Shown: positions 563 to 46,737 of the stretch, piece after piece
How the letters are laid out: each line of letters begins with the position of its first letter
Numbering within the stretch: position 1 is the stretch's first letter
Source of the DNA: Octopus vulgaris
Taxonomy: Eukaryota
DNA: 64,000 nt
Direction of reading: 5' to 3'
Assembly (NCBI GenBank): GCA_951406725.2
Contig: OX597819.1
Span: 79,980,001-80,044,000, forward strand
Notes under the pieces: model-generated
Told to the model about the DNA's origin: nothing
Seen by the model: the letters and a program-made list of their open reading frames with translations, nothing else
Databases searched by the model: none
Position numbers and translations under genes: made by a program

Positions 563-810
563 TAGGGAGAATTCACAAAAAAAACAAAAGACGAAGAGAG
601 ATGGTGTAGAGAACATGCAGATGTATTAGTTTAAAGATCGGGAAGTTAAAAAGTCTTTAACGTTTCGAGCCTATGCTCTTCCACAGAAAGGAATGGAGAA
701 AGAAACAAGGAGAGAAAATAAAGAATGTGTAGTGGCTAGCGATCTATTATGGCGTATGCCGGACAGAGGGATCACACAGGAGAGCCAGGGAGAAGGGGAG
801 ATAATAAAGT
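563..810 (-). mobile_element. Short PLE-type (pLTR-like) non-coding module carrying a variant hammerhead, copy 1
   Basis: Homologous to 33355-33558(-) and ~46430-46570(+); embedded in TA/TG microsatellite. Confidence 0.65.
655..690 (-). ncRNA. Putative minimal type I hammerhead ribozyme, variant core
   Basis: Minus strand reads cuuu-CUGUGGA-A-GAGC(auag)GCUC-GAA-ACGU-U-aaag: 4-bp stem I, 4-bp stem II, loopless palindromic stem III. Confidence 0.5.
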
Positions 811-1472
811 ATGTATGAATGTATGTGTGTATGTATGTATGTATGTGTGTGTATGTGTGTGTGCGTGTGCGCGCGCGTGGTTTGTCTCTCTACCACTGCT
901 TGTCAACAGCTGTCGTTGTCTTTACGCCCCTATATCTTAGCATTTCGACAAAGGACGCCGAAAGAATAAGTACTAGGCTTAAAAATAGTCCTGCGGTCGA
1001 TTTGTTCAGCTAAAACCCCTCCGGACAGTGCTCCAGCATGGCCGCAATCAAATGACTAAATCAAGTAAAGCAACAACTGTATAATACAGGTAAATTTTAT
1101 ATAACTGTGGGGTACAACTGTTTGTTCTAGTCGATGTTATATAAGAGAACATGTTAGAAAGACATGTGTACGCCTTGTAAATAAACATCCTTAAAATCAA
1201 TCAAGAGCTTATTTCAGTGTAATATTGCTGGATCACATTATGCAGCGAGTATTTCTTAGATTTTTAAATGGAAAACAGTATGAGGGTCTCATGAGAATCA
1301 AGTCAACTTATACGTCGACATATACGTTATGCATATGAATATATGCATTTTGTCTGGAGTTTCAATCTTGAACTTTCAGGATAAGCGCATATATGAAAGC
1401 CATTTTCGTCGGGTGTATGGCTGCATGCGTATGTATGTCTTCGGCTGTTTTATTGCGTATGTGTTTGTGCCT

Positions 1473-1797: not shown

Positions 1798-2110
1798 CCA
1801 ACACCACCACCACCAACAGCATCTTGAGTAGCAGCGGCAGTGGCAGCAGCTCCTTCAACGTCATTATAATTATTGCATACTAGTCAACCGTCGTCATCTT
1901 CAGCCTCATCATCATCATCCTCATTTTCTGAGTCGTCGTTTTGTCGTGGCTGTGGATGTCATCAAAATCATCACCACTATCAACAACACTAAACCACCAC
2001 CAACACCACCACCACCATCACCACCAAAACCACCGTCACCACCACCACCACCATCATCATCATCGTCATCATCATCATTTTTAATGCCAACACCTAATCA
2101 TCGTCATGTC
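1625..2110. repeat. (CAT)n/(CAC)n trinucleotide microsatellite cluster
   Basis: Direct inspection; the source of the poly-M/V/P/S pseudo-ORFs. Confidence 0.95.
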
Positions 2111-2172
2111 TACGTGTTATATCTTCATCACGTCTGGGAAATTTAAGCATGAAGAATCATTATGATTTTGTC

Positions 2173-2224
<52 letters not shown>

Positions 2225-2308
2225 ACACATACACACACAACAGCACACACATATACACAAACATACAGACATACGTGCTATACATACAGGTACACCTTAT
2301 TTATACTC

Positions 2309-2345
<37 letters not shown>

Positions 2346-2830
2346 TATACATACCTATATATATATAGATATATATATATACACACGCACACATATATAC
2401 ATATATACACGCATAATACATACGTACATACATACACACATACACAGATACATGCTTACATGCATACTCTTATTATAAATTGTTAGAAGCTGAATCTTTA
2501 CTATTCGCTACTTCAAGTTTCTATATTTCCGACGTTCAGATGATGAGAGAAACTCGAAAAACGATTTGTGAGGTGACGGATTCCAGTGGATACAACACTT
2601 GACGTAGAGTATTAAGTGCGCGCTTTTCTCCATTTTTTTTCACAGTCAGTTGTTTACACACGTCTGCATACACATATGTATACATCCGTCCATCCATCCA
2701 TCCATACATACATACATACATACATACATACATACATACATACATACATGTATACATGCATACCTGCATACATACACACACATATATGTATATGTATTTA
2801 TACATACATACATACATACATACATGCATA

Positions 2831-2862
<32 letters not shown>

Positions 2863-2868
2863 AATCTA

Positions 2869-2985
<117 letters not shown>

Positions 2986-3069
2986 TGGTAGATCGACAGA
3001 TAATAAGATATAGCTAGATAATATGCATATTGTATGCGCGTGTATGTGTGTAGAGATAGATAGACAAAC

Positions 3070-3163
<94 letters not shown>

Positions 3164-3343
3164 GCGGATAGCTAGATATGTAGGTAGATTGGTAGGTAGA
3201 TAGACAGACAGACAGATCTACCTATATACCTACCTACATATCTGTTTATCTCTCTCTCTATCTATCTATCTACACACACTAACACACAGATATAATAGAA
3301 ACACTTCTCTATTTCTCTACCTGTCTATATATCTGTCTATCAA

Positions 3344-3380
<37 letters not shown>

Positions 3381-3789
3381 GCGCACACATATACATATAC
3401 ATATAGACAGATAGAAAGACAGACAATTTATAAATATAGCTGTGTATATGGCCATATGCATTTGCTTATGTATCATATATTTCGTATCTGAGTACCAATA
3501 TGAATAATGCATACGTATTTGTATGTACGTATGTACGTATGTATCCATGTGCGTGTGTCTAAGTAAAAAAGGAGAGATGAAATTAGTAAATAACGGTGGA
3601 ATAGAGAAGGTGGGTGTGGTAGATGTGCATAAATGCTGGCGTGTGTTTATACGTTTATGTATGTGCGACTGTGTATATATGTGTTCAAATTCAAATATAT
3701 CTGGCATTTGTATGATCGCCTGAGTACGTACATCAGCCGTATTGTCTTGTCTTATCTTATCTTTCGATTTCGGAATTAAAAACATTAAA

Positions 3790-4430
3790 AGTGGGAGGAA
3801 ATAGAGAAAAAAATGGAGGATAAACAAATGTAGAGAAAGAAAAACAACGAAAGATAGAGAGGAAGAAAACTAAGAAAGAGAAAATGAAAGAGAAAAGAAA
3901 TGAGAAATGAGAAAATGAAACGAAGGCCTGAAAGAATGACAGAAGGGAAAAAAGTCAAAAGGAAAAAAAAAAAAAATTGGAAGAAATTCAGAGAGAAATT
4001 GAAGGCAGGAAGGAGGAAAGAATGAAAAAGAAAGAAAGAGAGCAAGAATGAATGGAAACTGAAACAGAAGCAAAGAAAGGAAGAAATGCTGAAGAGAAAG
4101 AATGTCAGAAAGAAACAAGTAAAACGAAGGAAAATAAGAATTGCCCCTCCCCCCTCAAAAATAAAAGAATGGAAGAAAGACAGAATCGACATAAAGTAAC
4201 AAAGAACAAGCGAAAGAGTAACTGGCATGAATAACACATAAGCAATAAAAAGAAGGCAAGAAGAAAGAAAGAAAGAAAGAAAGAAAAAATGAATGAATGA
4301 ATGAAAGAACGAGCGAAAACGGTGAAGGAATGAAGGGTGAAAAAGAACAAATGAAACAAGTAAGAAGAAAGAAAACATAAAGGAAAGAAAAGGAGGAAAA
4401 AGGAAGACGGAAAGAAGGAGAGTCACAATG
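3790..4430. repeat. Low-complexity polypurine (GA-rich) tract
   Basis: About 640 bp dominated by A/G, with (GAAA)n and (GAAT)n runs. Confidence 0.9.
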
Positions 4431-4686
4431 AATGAAATTTATATAAATATATACTAAAAAATAAAAACGGAGGGAAGATGGATGAGGGGTACCAGTGTGG
4501 AAAGATTGTGTGTCAAGTCTGGCCCTGTTAATACAGTGGCGCCATCTATTGCATTTAGAAATCGTTAATCTTCGTTATGATCCAGACATGGTACTTATCA
4601 ACATTTCGTCAAGTGTCTGACAGATATAGGTCAAGGACACGAAGAGCTTGTTGGGTGTTGTATAAGTGTACGTTTATGTATGTATG

Positions 4687-4773
<87 letters not shown>

Positions 4774-4933
4774 GCAAACATTCACATATGCATAGAATCA
4801 CATCCGTAAGCCTCTACATATTGACATACGAATATTCAAATTCATTTATGCATTTGTAGCTGTGTAAACAGAAAACAACACACGAGCACTCAGATATAAA
4901 CATGCACACACTCTTGTGTTCTGTCTCTCTCTC

Positions 4934-4989
<56 letters not shown>

Positions 4990-5848
4990 ACTCTCTCTCT
5001 CTCTTCTCACATGCACACACATACGTGGAGGTACATGTGTGTATTAACTGTTGTACATTTGAACGTAACACAAATATTTCTGTGGCCGTGTGTGTGTGTG
5101 TGCATGTGTGTGTTCGTGTGTGTTTGTGTGTGCGTATATATATATATATATATATATATATCATTTCATATGTATATATGTATGCAAATATATACATACG
5201 TACGTATACTTTATAGTCATATGTATATAAATGTGTGCGATTGTGTGTGTGTGTGTGTGCTTGTGTGTATGTGTGTAGATGAGTATGTAAGTATGCATAC
5301 ACAAATGCCCACATGCAAACACATATACAAGGATTTTATTTTCCTCCTACGTATGAATATTCTCTTAACACTCAAAGTTACATAACCCAAAACATTGCAG
5401 TATCAAGTTATGGAATTTAAAATCCGTGTGCGTGCGTGTTTGTGTGTGTGCTATTTAGTAAGGAAATCACATTGTAAATAGCTGTTCATATGCCATCGAA
5501 TTAGCGTTTAAATCTTTGGATTAAATGCCTTCCACTACTTGTACTGGCTAACTGCGACCTTACTGAGGTGTTCAGTACTTTGAGAAGGAAATGCTTTTCA
5601 CAAATAGTCCCCTAAAATTCTCAACATGCTCATCCAGCAACATGAATTTCAGACAGAGCACATCTTTAAAACGCTTCTCAACAAAATACGAAACAAACTA
5701 AGGCTTCGCCTTTTTCGACAAATTCATATTCGTAAGGACTACAAAAGAGCTTGGTAGAAAGGACAGATTTCACCTCACTGTTGGCAAACAGTTCAGTCTG
5801 GGGCCACCACAATCCACCACCAGAGGTCAAGAACAATTCTTGTATATA

Positions 5849-5888
<40 letters not shown>

Positions 5889-6246
5889 GCATGGTCGAAT
5901 CGGCGGTTAAGTGAAGTTGCTAAAAACTTAGCACAGTTAAAAACAAAATCTGTCAAAAGGATGGATAAACCCAGTGTAGATTCAACCACTATCTAGCACT
6001 CAGAAATTGTTGGTATTCGGCGTGCTGACAGATATCTGGGAGTGAAACACTCCTCAGTTTTTCTTAACGCATGTCTCTAGCAGATCACTCTGATATAGTA
6101 AGACCGGATGCACAAGGACAGGCATTGGATATCTTAGGGATCTTTTGCTTGCGTTTGAGATTACTACAATCTCACATTCGTGAGTCTGCGACCATATTGG
6201 GACTAGAAATCTTGTCTCGGCTTGTCTCTGGAACATAGAGTGGCAA

Positions 6247-6510
6247 TCCGTCAGTTACGAGCGTTCCAGTTGACCCGATAAATGGTAGAGACTGCTTGTG
6301 AAATTAACGTGCTAGTGGGTGAACCCTCCACAGATACGCGTACCATTAACATTGTTCTCAGAGGGATTCAGGCTGATAAGATTGGTCTTTCGGATTACAA
6401 GTAGATTACATTTTTGTCAGCTGAATGGACCGGAGCAACCTGGAATATAGTGTCTTGCTGAAGGACACAACGCGTCACCGGGAATTGAACTCACAGCCTA
6501 TGTTTGATAA
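6247..6510 (-). mobile_element. SINE family B copy
   Basis: Reverse complement of 53555-53850 ('gaaattaacgtgc...ctccacaga...cagctga.tggac.ggagcaac...ggaattgaactcac'). Confidence 0.75.
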
Positions 6511-6855
6511 CTGGTGAGTTGTGTATTCGAGTGTGAGTTTGGATGATATTTACGAACCCACTCAAAAGGTGAGCATCGCAAAGAAATATTTCTCGTCGTC
6601 ACTCGACCTGCTAAATCTAACAGCCAAATGCTTCTCACATCACTCCTCTCGCTTTTACTCTCACCCTCTCCCTTAAAGAAGGCCATTATAGACAATGAAA
6701 TCCTAGATAAGATATATGTATGACCGAATGTATAGCACGTTGATTGCTGAAGCACTTTTGGTTATAGGGTGAGCTTGATCGAGTCTAACCGGCGGACAAA
6801 CACAAACACTAATAACAAGATTTCCATAAATAAATATCTCGGTAAAAATATATAT

Positions 6856-7119
6856 TCTTTTACTTGTTTCAGTCAGTTGACTGTGGCCATGCTGGAGCAC
6901 CGCCTTTAGTCGGACAAATCGTTCCTAGTACTTATTCTATAGGTCACTTTTGCCGAACCGCTAGATTACGGGGACGTAAACACACTAACATTGGTTGTCA
7001 AGTGATGGTGGGGGACAAACGCAGACGCACAAATTCGCACACACACATTATACACGTATATATATATATACGTGTGTGTGTGTGTGCATATATATATATA
7101 TATATATAATGTATGTATA

Positions 7120-7157
<38 letters not shown>

Positions 7158-7164
7158 GTATGTA

Positions 7165-7242
<78 letters not shown>

Positions 7243-7437
7243 ATATATATATATATATACGTAATATATATATACTTACGACGAGCTTCTTTCAGTTTCC
7301 GTCTACGAAATTCACTTACAAGGCTTTGTTCGGCCCAAGGCTAAAGCAAGAATACACTTGCCTAAGGTGCCACACAGTGGACTGAACCCGGAATCATGTG
7401 GTTGGGAAGCAAGCTTCTTACCACACAACCACGCCTG
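6856..7437 (-). mobile_element. SINE family A copy with expanded internal (TA)n
   Basis: 'cttttacttgtttcagtca...ggccatgctggagcacc' through 'ttcagtttccgtctac...ggactgaacccggaatcatgtggttgggaagcaagcttcttaccacac'. Confidence 0.85.
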
Positions 7438-7803
7438 AAGGAAAAGAAACACACACACACACGCACACAAGATTGGTCATGTCTTAGACATAATTGATCA
7501 TAGGTCTTTTCCAGTTGGGTTAAACAACAATAAAAACAACAAAGGCTAGAGCTTCTCATGCTGGTTCTCGTCGGTAGCCTACACCTTAAGGACCACTAGA
7601 TTTCGAGAGGGTTTAAAACCGCCAGACACTCCTTTATTTAGGCTACTAAGCTTCAACCTCTTTACCTGAAAGCTAACCAACCAGGCAAGTAATTTGTTCC
7701 TTTTTTGTGTAGCTCAAAACTTATGATATGGTCCTACTGATATAGGTCGAATGACAAGACGGTACTTACCAATACATACATACATACACGCATACATACA
7801 TAC

Positions 7804-7876
<73 letters not shown>

Positions 7877-7970
7877 TATATACGTAAATATATATATGTG
7901 TGTATGTATATATATATGTATATATGTATGTGTGGATGCCTATATATATCTATGTATATATGCTTGTGCG

Positions 7971-8029
<59 letters not shown>

Positions 8030-8256
8030 GTGTGTATGTATGTATGTATGAGTAAATACACTCGTGCGCACACACATACGAACGTTACATATGTACGTAC
8101 ACTTCGTATTTGTATAGGTGCATGCAATCGAAAGGTAGATCTCGGTAACAGTCAGATTAACATTAATCATTCTGTTCGCCTTGACAAGTGTAACGTAGAA
8201 AAGGTGGGTACTGTGTCAGGTGTCTCGACGCTGAATGACACAGAACGAGGTATTGT

Positions 8257-8257
<1 letters not shown>

Positions 8258-8288
<31 letters not shown>

Positions 8289-8570
8289 GGTGGTGGTGGT
8301 GGTGGTGGTGGTGGTGGTGGTGGTGGTGGTGGTGGTGGTGATGATGGTGGTGGTGGCTGCGGCGGCGGGGCCGTGGTGGTGGTGGTGGGGTGTGGGTGTG
8401 TGGTGCTGGTGTTGGTGGCGGGGTGACGGTGGTGGTGGTGGTAGTGGTAGTAGTAGTGGTAGTAGTAGTGGTAGTAGTAGTGGTAGTAGTGGTAGTAGTA
8501 GTAGTAGTGGTAGTAGTAGTATTAGTAGTATTAGTAGTATTAGTATTAGTAGTAGTCGTAGTAGTAGCAG
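8258..8570. repeat. (GGT)n/(AGT)n microsatellite cluster
   Basis: Direct inspection. Confidence 0.95.
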
Positions 8571-9279
8571 TGGCTCAATACAGTCACTTTTTTTTTAATA
8601 TAAATCTATATTTCTAGGACCGTAAGTCATGCCAATGCGTTCTTCGTTTTATATGACGAGGTGGTTCGATTCAAAAGAAACTTGGTTGCTGCTTCCAGAA
8701 CGTCATGCAGCCGCGTAGGAGTAGCTACGGTGCTGTCAACTGGTCAATGAAAGGTTTAATTGAGACTGGTGACGCTAAAGTATGTATATGATGGGAGAGA
8801 CAAATACTCGCAAAAAGATTGATATGAAACCAGTTTGAAAACAACATTATGATTCGAATTATTTATTGACGAATAATATTTGATTCCTTCAGTAAGTATG
8901 GGAGCTAATTCTGAACAAGTTTAGGCCTTGTTATATCTCCTTAGCAAAGCGTGTTTTTTTTCTCCGTATATACTGAAGCAGTAATGGTAGAATTAACAAG
9001 GTCGCACTGTTCAAAATATTCAATGTGATTTTTTTGTTAGGCATGCGATTCAGGAAGTCCTGCGAGAAGCTGTTTACACATGACTGCTTTACGTGTTCAC
9101 TTGAACTTTCATTAAATGTAATCAAATCTTGTACAAACTTCTCCACATGGTCACCGGGAAATACGAAATCAAATATCTTTAATCCTTTATCTTTTAACTT
9201 TTACTGCTTTCAGTCATTTGACTTCAGTTATGCTAACGCACCACATTAAAAGGTTTAGTAAAACAATTCAATCGCGGTA

Positions 9280-15465: not shown

Positions 15466-16968
<1,503 letters not shown>

Positions 16969-17201: not shown

Positions 17202-20200
17202 ATGCGTGATACATTACGATCCATCAACACCAGATCATCCCCAACCCCAAACACCATGTACAAAGGAACTACGAAGAAATTAAATACCAACGATATTATT
17301 CAACCCAAGAATAACAATCGGGAGGTACGTAATTTAAACTTACAACACAAAATGTACGAAAAACTACACGTGCAAAACAATGTGACAACAGAAATGAACG
17401 GACCGGTACCCTACGAAAATGACGACCGTCAAAATAATGGGCCGGACGTTGTTCCTCATGTCCCGCAAATAAAACCCAAAAAACATAAATGGACACGTGA
17501 GGAATACATTTCTATCCTACACGCATACTTCACAGCAGTGCTCTACCCAAAAAATAAAATCACAACAACACATACATATAAAATATGGAAGGAAAATAAC
17601 ATAAATATAGACTTGAATACATCAATGGACACTAATAAACTAGCTAACGTACGAAGGTACATTCTCAACGCAAAAAAATATCAGAAATAGAAATAGAGCA
17701 TCTAACAGAAAAAATACACCAGGAAAATGTAGATAGAAGCCACAAAACAATGCCCAATAATATAAACACTGAAACAGTAAAACACGAAGACAAACGTAAC
17801 ATTCCCAACAAATACGATGTAAACAAAAAACAACAAACCCAGACCGTAAGGATGCATAATAATACACGACAAACAGCAAGCCAAAACACGGCAAACAAAC
17901 ATATAAATAAGAAAGAAAGCGACACAAATCTAAAACCTGGAAACAACGAAGGGGAGCCTAATGATTATGATAATATAAAAAGTAAAATAATCAAAGAACT
18001 GAAAACCACAGAGCTCAAAATGGACCACCGACCATACCTCCCAAAAATCAAAATAGACAAAACAACAACACCAATTATAAACAGCATAAACCTAGCCGTC
18101 ACGGAACTAATAGCCACTGAACAAAAAGCGATATCACTGAGCTAAATGACTTTAGTATACGCAGCAGCCACTGCAGCCACAAAAGAAGCTGGATACTCAC
18201 TCAAACCAATCCAAACAGGAGTACCACCACCCAAACAAACCCTGTGGGTAAATAACATCCAAAACAAAATACAAAAAATGAGAAAAGATCTGTCGATTCT
18301 TAATGAAATCAGTAGACAATCAACACTACTGAGCAACAAAAAGAAAACAAAAATACTCCGCAAATATAACATCACAGAAAAAGATTTACTTGAGATAAAA
18401 GAAAAGCTGAAGCAAGATATCCTTGCCAAAGCACAAAGGATTCGCCGGTACGAGAAACGCCAGTGCTTCTTTGAACAAAACAAAAAGTTCAACTCCAACC
18501 CCAAAAAGTTCTACCAAGAACTTGGCAAAAATAAAATAGAAATCACTCCCGCACCAACGGCAGAAGAAATGGAAGAATTCTGGAGAGAAATATGGTCGGC
18601 GAACGAACAACCAAAAAAAAAGGAGTATCAAAACAACAAACTCGGCATCTGAGCAACTTTGGACCCCCATAACAACTGAAGAGGTCACCCAGGCACTGCA
18701 AAGACTAAGCAACTGGAAGGCACCTGGGCATGACAAGATCCCCAACTTCTGGTTGAAATATCTAACAGGAATGCACAAAAAGCTGGCTGAAAAATTTAAC
18801 AACATACTAGCAGAGCCAGAGACAATGCCCGAATGGCTCACGAAGGGGAAAACCATCTTAATTCCCAAATCAAATGAGACAGCAAAACCAGAAAACTACA
18901 GACAAATAACCTGTCTCCCTACATGTACAAGGCATTTACTGCAGTGATATCGTAAAGGTTGAACAAGCACCTGGACGAAAACCTGTTTCCAGAAGAGCAG
19001 AAAGATGCCGCAAAGGCTCATATGGCTGTAAAGATCAACTAATGATTAATAAAGCCATAACTGAAGACAGCCACAGAAAGAAGAAAGGCCTCAGTATGGC
19101 CTGGATCGACTACAAAAAGGCGTTTGATAGCATTCCCCACACATGGATCCTCGAAACACTAGCCATTAACAAAGTAGCACCAACAATTATAAAATTCATA
19201 GGGCACTCTATGAATAAATGGCAAACAGTGCTACAGCTCCAAACAAAAGAGGGACTCATGAAAACCAAAGCCATCCCCATTAGAAGAGGAATATTCCAGG
19301 GAGACACGCTCTCTCCACTCCTTTTCTGCTTGGCACTGTCACCTCTATCTGATATGCTAAATAGAACTGGATGCGGATATAAATGTTACGGCAAAACGAT
19401 CAGCCACCTTTTATATATGGATGACCTAAAACTATACGCTGCAAATGACAAACAGCTGGAAACACTATTAAAGACAGTTCATGGGTTTACCAAAGAAATA
19501 GATATGAAATTTGAATATGAAAAATGCGCCAAAGTAACCATGAAAAGAGGAAAACTAGTTAAGAGTAGCAACATCACACTAGATAAAACCAATGAAATGA
19601 AAGAATTAGACCAAAGCCAAACTTACAAATACTTAGGAATCCATGAACTAGATAAGACACAACACACACAAATGAAAGGGAAAATAAAAAAAGAATATTA
19701 TAGACGAAGTAGATCAATACTAAAATCAGAGCTCAATGCTAAAAACAAGATGATAGGTATTAACACTTTAGCTGTCCCAGTTACACTAAATGAACTGACC
19801 AAAATAGATAGGAAAACAAGAAAAATAATGACAGGATCTGGGATGCATCACTCAAAATCTGACATAGAAAGACTATATATACAACGTATAGAAGGTGGTA
19901 GAGGCCTTATACAGCTGGAAAACTACTATAAAATAACCACCATAGGACTGCAAAAATATCTACTTCAGAAGGAAGGAAAACTGATACAAATAGCGACAAA
20001 ACACAAGCAAAACAAAAAACTGTTCCCAGTATTTAAGGAAGCTGACAAATACAAACAAGAAATCATACCACCTAATAAATATGAAGAACAAGAAGAAGAA
20101 GATGAAGAAACAACAAAAGCTATAAAACAAATGAAATCCAAACTAAAAATAGAACAGCAGCGAACCATGATAAAACGATGGCAAGAAAAGCCCCTTCACG

Positions 20201-20946
20201 ATAAATACTGGACTAAACTAAACGCAAAAGAAATAGACAAAGAAAAATCCCAGCAATGGTTGAGAAGCTCAGGATTCAAAGCAGAGACAGAGGGATTTTT
20301 AATTGCAGCACAAGACCAAAGCCTCCCCACCAGAAATTACCAAAAAAATGTAATGAAAAGAAATATAACAAGTAACTGCAGAATATGTGGAGATGGACAA
20401 GAAACAATAAATCATATTATCTCTGGCTGCCCAGTCCTGGCTAAGAAGGATTATATTCACAGACATGACAGAGTTGGAACCTACATACACTGGAAGCTAT
20501 GCCAACATTATGGAATAACAACAGAAAAAAGATGGTATAGGCACACACCAGAAAAGGTCACAGAAAACGAGAAAGCAACCATACTCTGGGGTATGCCGAA
20601 ACACACAGATAGAGAAATTAAGGCCAACAGACCAGATATAGTTGTCAGAGATCATGAAGAAAAAAAATGCTTTCTAATTCATGTATCAATACCGGCAGAT
20701 GACAACGTGTCTCTAAAAGAAACGGAGAAACTTTCAAAATACAAAGACCTGGAAATAGAGGTAACCAGAATGTGGAATCTAAAAACAGAAACAATTCCTA
20801 TCATAGTAGGTGCATTAGGCATGATAAAAAAATATTCAGACAAATGCATAACAAAAACACCAGGACTTACAAACACATATAACATACAGAAAATTGCACT
20901 ACTAGGCACTGCACACATCCTACGCAGAACACTTTCCATACAATAA
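17202..20946 (+). pseudogene. Disrupted retrotransposon polyprotein ORF
   Basis: Consecutive fragments 17202-17690, 17750-18145, 18146-18652, ~18650-18950 (NWKAPGHDKI, ENYRQITCLP) and 19042-20946, broken by frameshifts and stops. Confidence 0.88.
19042..20946 (+). CDS. Reverse transcriptase + CCHC + RLE endonuclease (open C-terminal 634 aa of the disrupted ORF)
   Basis: WIDYKKAFDS, RRGIFQGDTLSPLLF, HLLYMDD (YMDD at 19414-19425), YKYLG, GGRGL, CRIC...H...C, RHD, RPDIVV, KLSKY. The expected second catalytic Asp reads His (IHVSIP). Confidence 0.9.
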   Translation: MINKAITEDSHRKKKGLSMAWIDYKKAFDSIPHTWILETLAINKVAPTIIKFIGHSMNKWQTVLQLQTKEGLMKTKAIPIRRGIFQGDTLSPLLFCLALSPLSDMLNRTGCGYKCYGKTISHLLYMDDLKLYAANDKQLETLLKTVHGFTKEIDMKFEYEKCAKVTMKRGKLVKSSNITLDKTNEMKELDQSQTYKYLGIHELDKTQHTQMKGKIKKEYYRRSRSILKSELNAKNKMIGINTLAVPVTLNELTKIDRKTRKIMTGSGMHHSKSDIERLYIQRIEGGRGLIQLENYYKITTIGLQKYLLQKEGKLIQIATKHKQNKKLFPVFKEADKYKQEIIPPNKYEEQEEEDEETTKAIKQMKSKLKIEQQRTMIKRWQEKPLHDKYWTKLNAKEIDKEKSQQWLRSSGFKAETEGFLIAAQDQSLPTRNYQKNVMKRNITSNCRICGDGQETINHIISGCPVLAKKDYIHRHDRVGTYIHWKLCQHYGITTEKRWYRHTPEKVTENEKATILWGMPKHTDREIKANRPDIVVRDHEEKKCFLIHVSIPADDNVSLKETEKLSKYKDLEIEVTRMWNLKTETIPIIVGALGMIKKYSDKCITKTPGLTNTYNIQKIALLGTAHILRRTLSIQ

Positions 20947-33354: not shown

Positions 33355-33358
<4 letters not shown>

Positions 33359-33558
33359 GGAGAGTTTACGAAAAAACAAAAGACGAAAATAGGTTGTGTA
33401 CAAAACAAACAGATATATTAGTATAACGCTCAGGAATAGAAAAAGTCTTTTACGTTTCGAGCCTACGCTCTTCTACAGAAAGGGACAGAAAAAACAAGGA
33501 GAGAAACAAGGAGAGAAAAAAAATGTGTGTAGTGGCTAACGATCTATTATGGTGACTG
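33355..33558 (-). mobile_element. Short hammerhead module, copy 2 (motif at 33447-33482)
   Basis: Homologous to 563-755. Minus strand cuuu-CUGUAGA-A-GAGC(guag)GCUC-GAA-ACGU-A-aaag; (TA)n both sides. Confidence 0.7.
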
Positions 33559-46199: not shown

Positions 46200-46737
46200 T
46201 TTAGCGTGTTTCAGTCATTAAACTGCTGCCCTAGTGGTGCACTGCCACGAAGAGTTTTCAGTCAAATGAAACGTCTCTTGTATTTATTTTTCTCCTCTTC
46301 AACCTCGTACATATTCCATCAGTATTTTTTACTGAAAAGCTAAGGTACAGTGACGTGAAGAAACCAACAATGGTTGTCAACACACACACACATAGTCTCT
46401 CTCACACACATACGCACACATATCTATAAGTTTTTTTTTCATTCTCTGTTTATTTTCTCTTATTCCTTTCTGTTGAAGAGCGTAGGCTCGAAACGTAAAA
46501 GACTGTTTCATTTTTCCCGAGCGTGAAACTAATACACTTGCCTCGTCTTTAGTTTTCCTATAAATTTCAATACATGTATTGAAAGGCTTCTTTCAGTTTC
46601 CGTCTACCAAATCCACTCGAAAGGTTTTGGTTGGCCCAAAACTATAGTAGAACATACTTGCCCAATGTCTTACACAGTAGGACTGGATCCGAAACCATGT
46701 GGTTAGGAACCAATCTTCTTACCACACAGCCAGACCT
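46200..46737 (-). mobile_element. SINE family A copy with a nested hammerhead module
   Basis: SINE halves at ~46200-46380 and ~46583-46737; insert at ~46430-46570. Confidence 0.75.
46466..46501 (+). ncRNA. Variant minimal hammerhead, copy 3
   Basis: cuuu-CUGUUGA-A-GAGC(guag)GCUC-GAA-ACGU-A-aaag. Confidence 0.5.

Follow-up and report, generated by a model that had tools for sequence, protein, structure and literature searches.

The window, a 64-kb stretch of Octopus vulgaris DNA, carries three copies of a 36-nt hammerhead motif, each embedded in the truncated tail of a Penelope-like retrotransposon (PLE; Table 1). The sequence-only reading had placed the motifs where we find them and had limited their differences to N7, one base of loop II and H17. 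Both statements are correct: exactly 3 of the 36 columns differ, namely N7 (G/A/U in copies 1–3), the first base of loop II, and H17 (U/A/A). The likeness extends beyond the motif, with 93–204 nt at 79–84% identity between pairs of copies. The fragments are 150–250 nt long and stop ~70–90 nt beyond the motif, in two cases abutting (TA)n directly, and copy 3 has lost ~20 nt by an internal deletion downstream of its motif. A relaxed hammerhead descriptor, permitting any base at position 6, matched the window at the three motif sites only, and an Rfam scan of the window returned no hammerhead family among the best 150 of 310 matches, only microsatellite-driven matches to miRNA families. The copies are solo, and therefore have no dimer partner in cis; as truncated tails 13–33 kb apart, the third on the opposite strand, they do not constitute a working set. 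They are likely dead-on-arrival 3′ ends, relics of a working element that themselves do nothing. They also differ from non-LTR retrozymes, defined by short non-coding tandem repeats that each contain a hammerhead, in that the window copies are solo and the repeats of long elements enclose an open reading frame (ORF).

Table 1. Features of the 64-kb window, with the parts of the copy 3 motif listed singly
Feature	Position	Strand	Remarks
PLE tail, copy 1	565..812	−	5′-truncated, between microsatellites; ends approximate
Hammerhead motif of copy 1	655..690	−	U6 at 683, N7 = G at 682, H17 = U at 659; first loop base A, a CpG transition
Second zf-RVT piece	15792..16388	−	opposite strand to, and upstream of, the 678-codon frame
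678-codon open frame	18910..20946	+	RVT_1 and zf-RVT; part of a LINE-type ORF2, not PLE
PLE tail, copy 2	33358..33556	−	5′-truncated, between (TA)n tracts; ends approximate
Hammerhead motif of copy 2	33447..33482	−	U6 at 33475, N7 = A at 33474, H17 = A at 33451
3′ tail, copy 3	46424..46570	+	5′-truncated pLTR fragment of Neptune-like PLE, older subfamily; ends approximate, read against relatives
Hammerhead motif of copy 3	46466..46501	+	minimal type I; numbering after Cervera and de la Peña 2014
Stem I	46466–46469/46498–46501	+	
C3–A9	46470–46476	+	U6 at 46473, N7 = U at 46474
Extra A	46477	+	
Stem II	46478–46481/46486–46489	+	
G12–A14	46490–46492	+	
Palindrome ACGU	46493–46496	+	
H17	46497	+	A; predicted cut 3′ of H17

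The source of the motifs is almost certainly the terminal repeat (pLTR) of a Neptune-like PLE. At a long copy (locus L025/L089), the upstream sequence runs into a frame with reverse transcriptase (RT) and GIY-YIG motifs. A genome search with the protein of this locus gave 23,908 candidates, 115 of which were scored, many equally, with open frames of up to 1,214 codons. The motif lies within 1.5 kb of 27 of 30 loci chosen by protein similarity alone, always as U6. Among 15 places (16 stretches) chosen for long open frames, 10 possess at least two same-strand motifs ~4.5 kb apart and 5 a single motif; the 26 motifs of the young subfamily in these places are all identical (U6, U7 and U17), and in full-length, near-identical elements both terminal repeats contain the U6 motif. 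These places are 98.1–99.97% identical to L123 over 2.2–2.9 kb, indicating that the family is young, and by the evidence of its copies it is recently active and very abundant. In the young element, ~330 nt separate the motif from the open frame downstream of it. The encoded protein, P0001, matches RVT_1 (E 1.6e-7) and contains a DKG motif and a CxxxxCxxC linker; its GIY-YIG match (E 0.0076) is below the curated Pfam cut-off, with an IIYC...YIGQT motif visible. The label Neptune-like rests on the cysteine linker, which Craig et al. 2021 (10.1101/2021.04.23.441226) attribute to both Neptune and Nematis PLEs, and on a resemblance to Acropora; the choice of Neptune over Nematis is provisional.

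Beyond the genome, a contig of organism B is identical over L123:6696-6767, U6 included, and four contig sets presumed to be RNA-derived contained no splice joint; these are assembled contigs, so cleavage ends are not visible in them. In L123, the 3′ UTR from the endonuclease to the hammerhead is occupied by a lengthy C/T-rich tract together with short tandem repeats (2760–3070 and 7260–7500), and the reading frame of L123-type elements extends into the C/T-rich tract, with stop positions that vary among copies. At L013 (G000:C1:1878305-1878476), two truncated copies lie tail to tail ~145 nt apart, an inverted layout typical of PLEs. About 55 nt beyond the motif, the 3′ flank in all subfamilies contains two blocks, one conserved and 17 nt long and the other CTAATACA, close to the 3′ end of the element; both are candidate sites of RT initiation or protein binding.

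Across the 2.8-Gb genome, a 27-nt core pattern that accepts any base at positions 6 and 7 and in the loop is matched exactly at 19,868 places, compared to 0 for the reversed control, and the motifs are therefore non-random. A 17-mer from the flank alone has 22,956 matches, and a pattern of the stems alone has 52,084; most loci are counted on both strands by the latter, corresponding to roughly 26,000 or more loci. Position 6 of the exact matches is U in 18,928 (95.3%), A in 356, and C or G in 584. Position 17 is C or G in 360 exact matches, with G in 40 of the first 100 of these listed, and G17 copies are spread over the tree. The original description of the motif as non-canonical, owing to both A6U and an inserted A, is accurate for U6 across the family: Fig. 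S3 of PMC4209133 has A6 in 56 of 56 rows, with the consensus CUGANGAH. The inserted A is ordinary, given an extra base at that place in 54 of the same 56 PLE hammerheads, and the ACGU palindrome is likewise a standard feature; PLE minimal hammerheads are described as conserving both an additional base after position 9, before 10.1, and a palindromic 15.2–16.2 (PMC4209133). U6 is, as judged from sequence, the sole unusual feature, and because U replaces the canonical A6 in most exact matches we file the motif as a variant rather than a canonical hammerhead member.

The ancestral state was likely A6, as suggested by its presence both in a sister family and in other hammerhead families of the genome. 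The sister family has the same stem II, a different loop, and G-C instead of C-G as the outer stem I pair; it comprises loci L030, L036, L044-L046, L048 and L058, with a tree support of 0.99 for 8 copies. The other families combine A6 with compensatory stem II sequences. In the older subfamily to which copy 3 belongs (745 matches), position 6 of the first 100 is U77/C14/A8/G1, a variability exceeding the 12% mean of T columns (binomial p 0.002) and equalled by 4 of the 40 T columns. This variation may mean that U6 is tolerated rather than required. Reversion at the level of a master element is unsupported: among 53 copies of the older subfamily, those with C6 or A6 form no supported clades and share no convincing diagnostic base in the flank.

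A second large family of minimal hammerheads (L317-L326; G000, e.g. C1:585829-585863) has canonical A6, a 5-bp stem II and a 10-nt loop, with 2,251 exact matches and N7 mostly U or A, and thus provides a natural control for the U6 family. A further apparent U6 family, distinguished by a longer stem II, was rejected as the decayed fringe of the A6 family, in which 97 of the first 100 of 2,251 matches have A6. A metagenome scan yielded at least 119 stretches, 11 with a stem II of at least 4 bp and one (L423) with a stem I of 3 bp. The L423 contig bears an inverted motif pair, one A6 and one U6, near-identical to the published Acropora Neptune hammerhead. The U6 motifs of L423 and L391 were discarded as candidate U6 lineages, since each adjoins an inverted A6 partner and looks like single-copy decay.

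Conservation was evaluated site by site in copies that had been selected on their downstream flank alone. The first 100 of 22,956 places gave 90 loci, representing 89 distinct copies, 69 of which retain the full ungapped motif (the 20 dropped were mostly truncated inside or past the motif, and a few had indels). Position 6 of these 69 copies is U66/A3, N7 is U29/A23/C11/G6, and H17 is A55/U12/C1/G1. The remaining core positions (C3 U4 G5, G8 A9, G12 A13 A14, and A15.1-U16.1) are each conserved in 65–69 of 69, and the extra nucleotide and the G10.1-C11.1 pair are present (A9.1 and G10.1 in 68, C11.1 in 65). Defining a polymorphic column by at least 5 minor alleles, with CpG transitions set aside, reveals none among the 34 motif columns other than N7 and H17, compared to 42 of 87 in the flank (Fisher p 2e-8, an optimistic value given shared ancestry and non-independent columns); the flanks are thus more variable than the motif, as the first reading had it. 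C7 forms a CpG with G8, such that the C/U split at N7 could partly reflect decay, an explanation unavailable for A7 and G7.

Flank tags assigned 149 of the 279 collected copies to subfamilies of 4–53 copies each; many of the 279 were gathered with motif patterns, which biases this set toward conservation. Across the 8 U6 subfamilies so defined, two positions alone differ in their majority base, N7 (U, C, G or A) and H17 (A or U). The ACGU palindrome (15.1–16.1), which replaces helix III, is the majority in 9 of 9 groups, with departures that are CpG transitions. The proposal that variation falls on positions tolerated by a hammerhead consequently stands for N7 and H17, and falls for the loop base: the G-to-A change of copy 1 is CpG decay, found in 9 of 69 copies, and G is the majority in 8 of 8 U6 subfamilies. 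The outcome named beforehand as fatal to the proposal, that N7 and H17 would be no freer than other sites or would be accounted for by CpG decay, did not materialize, as all four bases occur at N7, and subfamilies differ in having A or U at H17. Covariation was absent within the U6 lineage, in which neither the loop (GUAG) nor the exact stem sequence is any less frozen than the core; one stem I pair shows a compensatory change relative to the A6 sister family, and stem II covaries only among the other, A6 families. Frozen loop and stem letters are as compatible with protein recognition as with catalysis. A tree of 211 copies and 149 columns separates the subfamilies with weak support at deep nodes, and we claim no order for the changes at N7 and H17.

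Folding and cofolding of 36-mers, which cover nested structures (the helix III dimer is non-nested and lies outside the model), give predicted pairing probabilities between positions 6 and 15.1 of 0.65–0.98 for U6 (4 natural motifs) and 0.00 for A6 (2 natural motifs). The predicted U6-A15.1 pair stands beside G5-C15.2, in a fold incompatible with the active hammerhead; once 30–35 nt of flank are added, 2 of 4 U6 copies have this hairpin as their minimum-energy fold. U6 is predicted to favour a competing monomer fold. One candidate role, which we consider unlikely, is that of an off-switch: a selected U6 would zip the lone motif into the inactive hairpin (G5-C15.2, U6-A15.1), and a dimer or a protein of the element would open an active hammerhead that does not depend on A6. 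Solo copies within host transcripts, in their tens of thousands, would then be silent, while full-length elements would still process their RNA.

On balance, we think that the U6 motif likely still cleaves in full-length elements, slowly and with the assistance of a dimer or a protein. A read-through transcript of the pLTR-ORF-pLTR unit would bring two motifs together, their ACGU palindromes would pair as helix III, and cleavage after H17 would trim the transcript to unit length; U6, derived from A6 in this lineage, would have been tolerated since even slow cleavage would suffice. Two same-strand motifs ~4.5 kb apart, U6 in the youngest copies, and constraint everywhere except N7 and H17 argue for such activity, and there are analogies that may serve as precedent: the S. 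mansoni minimal hammerhead, which does not cleave as a monomer and cleaves weakly as a multimer (PMC4209133), protein help in the anole, and a slow but active A6C motif. Arguments to the contrary include the low activity of all single and double CUGA-turn mutants in saturation mutagenesis, the C3/G8 swap excepted (PMC9901934), the near-abolition by A6C of Mg-dependent cleavage in one ribozyme (PMC7151607), the dispensability of the hammerhead in the anole PLE, and the spread of Naiad PLEs without a hammerhead (10.1101/2021.04.23.441226), as well as the frozen loop and stems without covariation, the predicted competing fold, and the variability of position 6 in the older subfamily. The main rival, possible though somewhat improbable, is that the motif has lost the ability to cleave and is retained because, when folded, it offers the RT/endonuclease of the element an RNA handle, with U6 lengthening stem II into an irregular hairpin (U4-G16.2, G5-C15.2, U6-A15.1). 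The predicted 6:15.1 pairing of U6 and not A6 motifs, the invariant loop and stem letters, the slowness of position 6 mutants (PMC7151607, PMC3088659, PMC9901934), and the finding that cleavage is dispensable for in vitro insertion of the anole PLE (PMC11167929) are all consistent with a handle. However, the hairpin leaves C3, A14, the extra A and U16.1 unpaired or at its periphery, and yet their majority base is constant; N7 and H17 do shift, with no subfamily having G as its majority at H17. This pattern is the hammerhead's own; moreover, the hairpin is the minimum-energy fold in only half of the four U6 copies once flanks are included.

It is distinctly unlikely that U6 rode along neutrally in a ribozyme that is now a relic, with the apparent conservation of the 36 nt arising from few changes in master lineages or from a constraint on the DNA (a promoter or an endonuclease target). 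Invariant blocks do occur in the flanks as well (45 of 87 columns lack non-CpG polymorphism), the motif is near-palindromic, so that the stems-only pattern matches both strands, and the deep nodes of the tree are weakly supported; against this, the difference in polymorphic columns between motif and flank is marked, the free sites inside the conserved block are exactly N7 and H17, and N7 has four different subfamily majorities. Least probable by far is a hidden reading frame, in which N7 would occupy the third position of a valine codon, GTN. One frame does pass through the motif and places N7 at a four-fold degenerate site, but A17 creates a TAA stop (55 of 69 copies), the frame of the young element closes 8 codons after the motif with the long frame starting only ~330 nt downstream, and the A6 sister family alters both that codon and the loop codons, such that this explanation is largely refuted.

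The role of PLE hammerheads is itself a puzzle, given poor cleavage in vitro and one case that is dispensable for insertion, and the U6 lineage bears on what selection keeps. A normally invariant core base has changed in a lineage that became one of the most abundant hammerhead-bearing repeats of its genome and is still making near-identical copies. Together, the U6 lineage, the A6 sister family and the A6 and C6 copies form a naturally matched set, within one genome, for separating catalysis from protein binding. On the practical side, descriptors that require CUGANGA miss ~19,000 motifs in the Octopus genome. If the motif is dead, the interest shrinks to transposon annotation. Among the papers listed by a literature search, which did not extend to the text of the likeliest source (Lunse, Weinberg and Breaker, RNA Biol 14:1499), none concerned a natural A6U hammerhead.

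The nearest known systems are the minimal hammerheads in the pLTRs of metazoan PLEs (Cervera and de la Peña 2014, PMC4209133), the closest row being that of the Acropora digitifera Neptune, with nearly the same layout. The Octopus motif shares with them type I topology, a short stem I preceded by a U-rich tract, an additional base separating 9 from 10.1, G10.1-C11.1, a 4-bp stem II with a 4-nt loop, ACGU for helix III, presence in both pLTRs, and the predominance of solo copies. It differs by U6, as opposed to A6 throughout the published rows; in the parts of that paper covered, the sole core variant named in the text is U3-A8. Copy number is higher here (19,868 exact matches versus 2,000–9,000 per genome), albeit counted differently. 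The parent element likewise resembles the Neptune/Nematis-type EN+ PLEs of Craig et al. 2021 in its single ORF with RT, DKG motif, zinc-finger-like linker and C-terminal GIY-YIG, and in its pLTRs, partial tandems, inverted truncated copies and insertion at microsatellites. A natural substitution at position 6 with the rest of the core kept is also found in the A6C hammerhead of phage Bcep176, slow but active, slow in Mg and better in Mn (PMC3088659; PMC7151607); there, the base is C rather than U, and a single assayed phage motif contrasts with a large transposon lineage known from sequence alone. Finally, the Poseidon PLE of the green anole resembles the Octopus element as an active PLE with a minimal hammerhead in its pLTR; this hammerhead cleaves only with the element's own protein, its mutants had no effect on in vitro insertion, and RNA-seq gave no reads ending at the cut site (PMC11167929). 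The anole ORF starts at stem II and cleavage depends on protein, whereas the Octopus motif lies ~330 nt upstream of the frame and carries U6.
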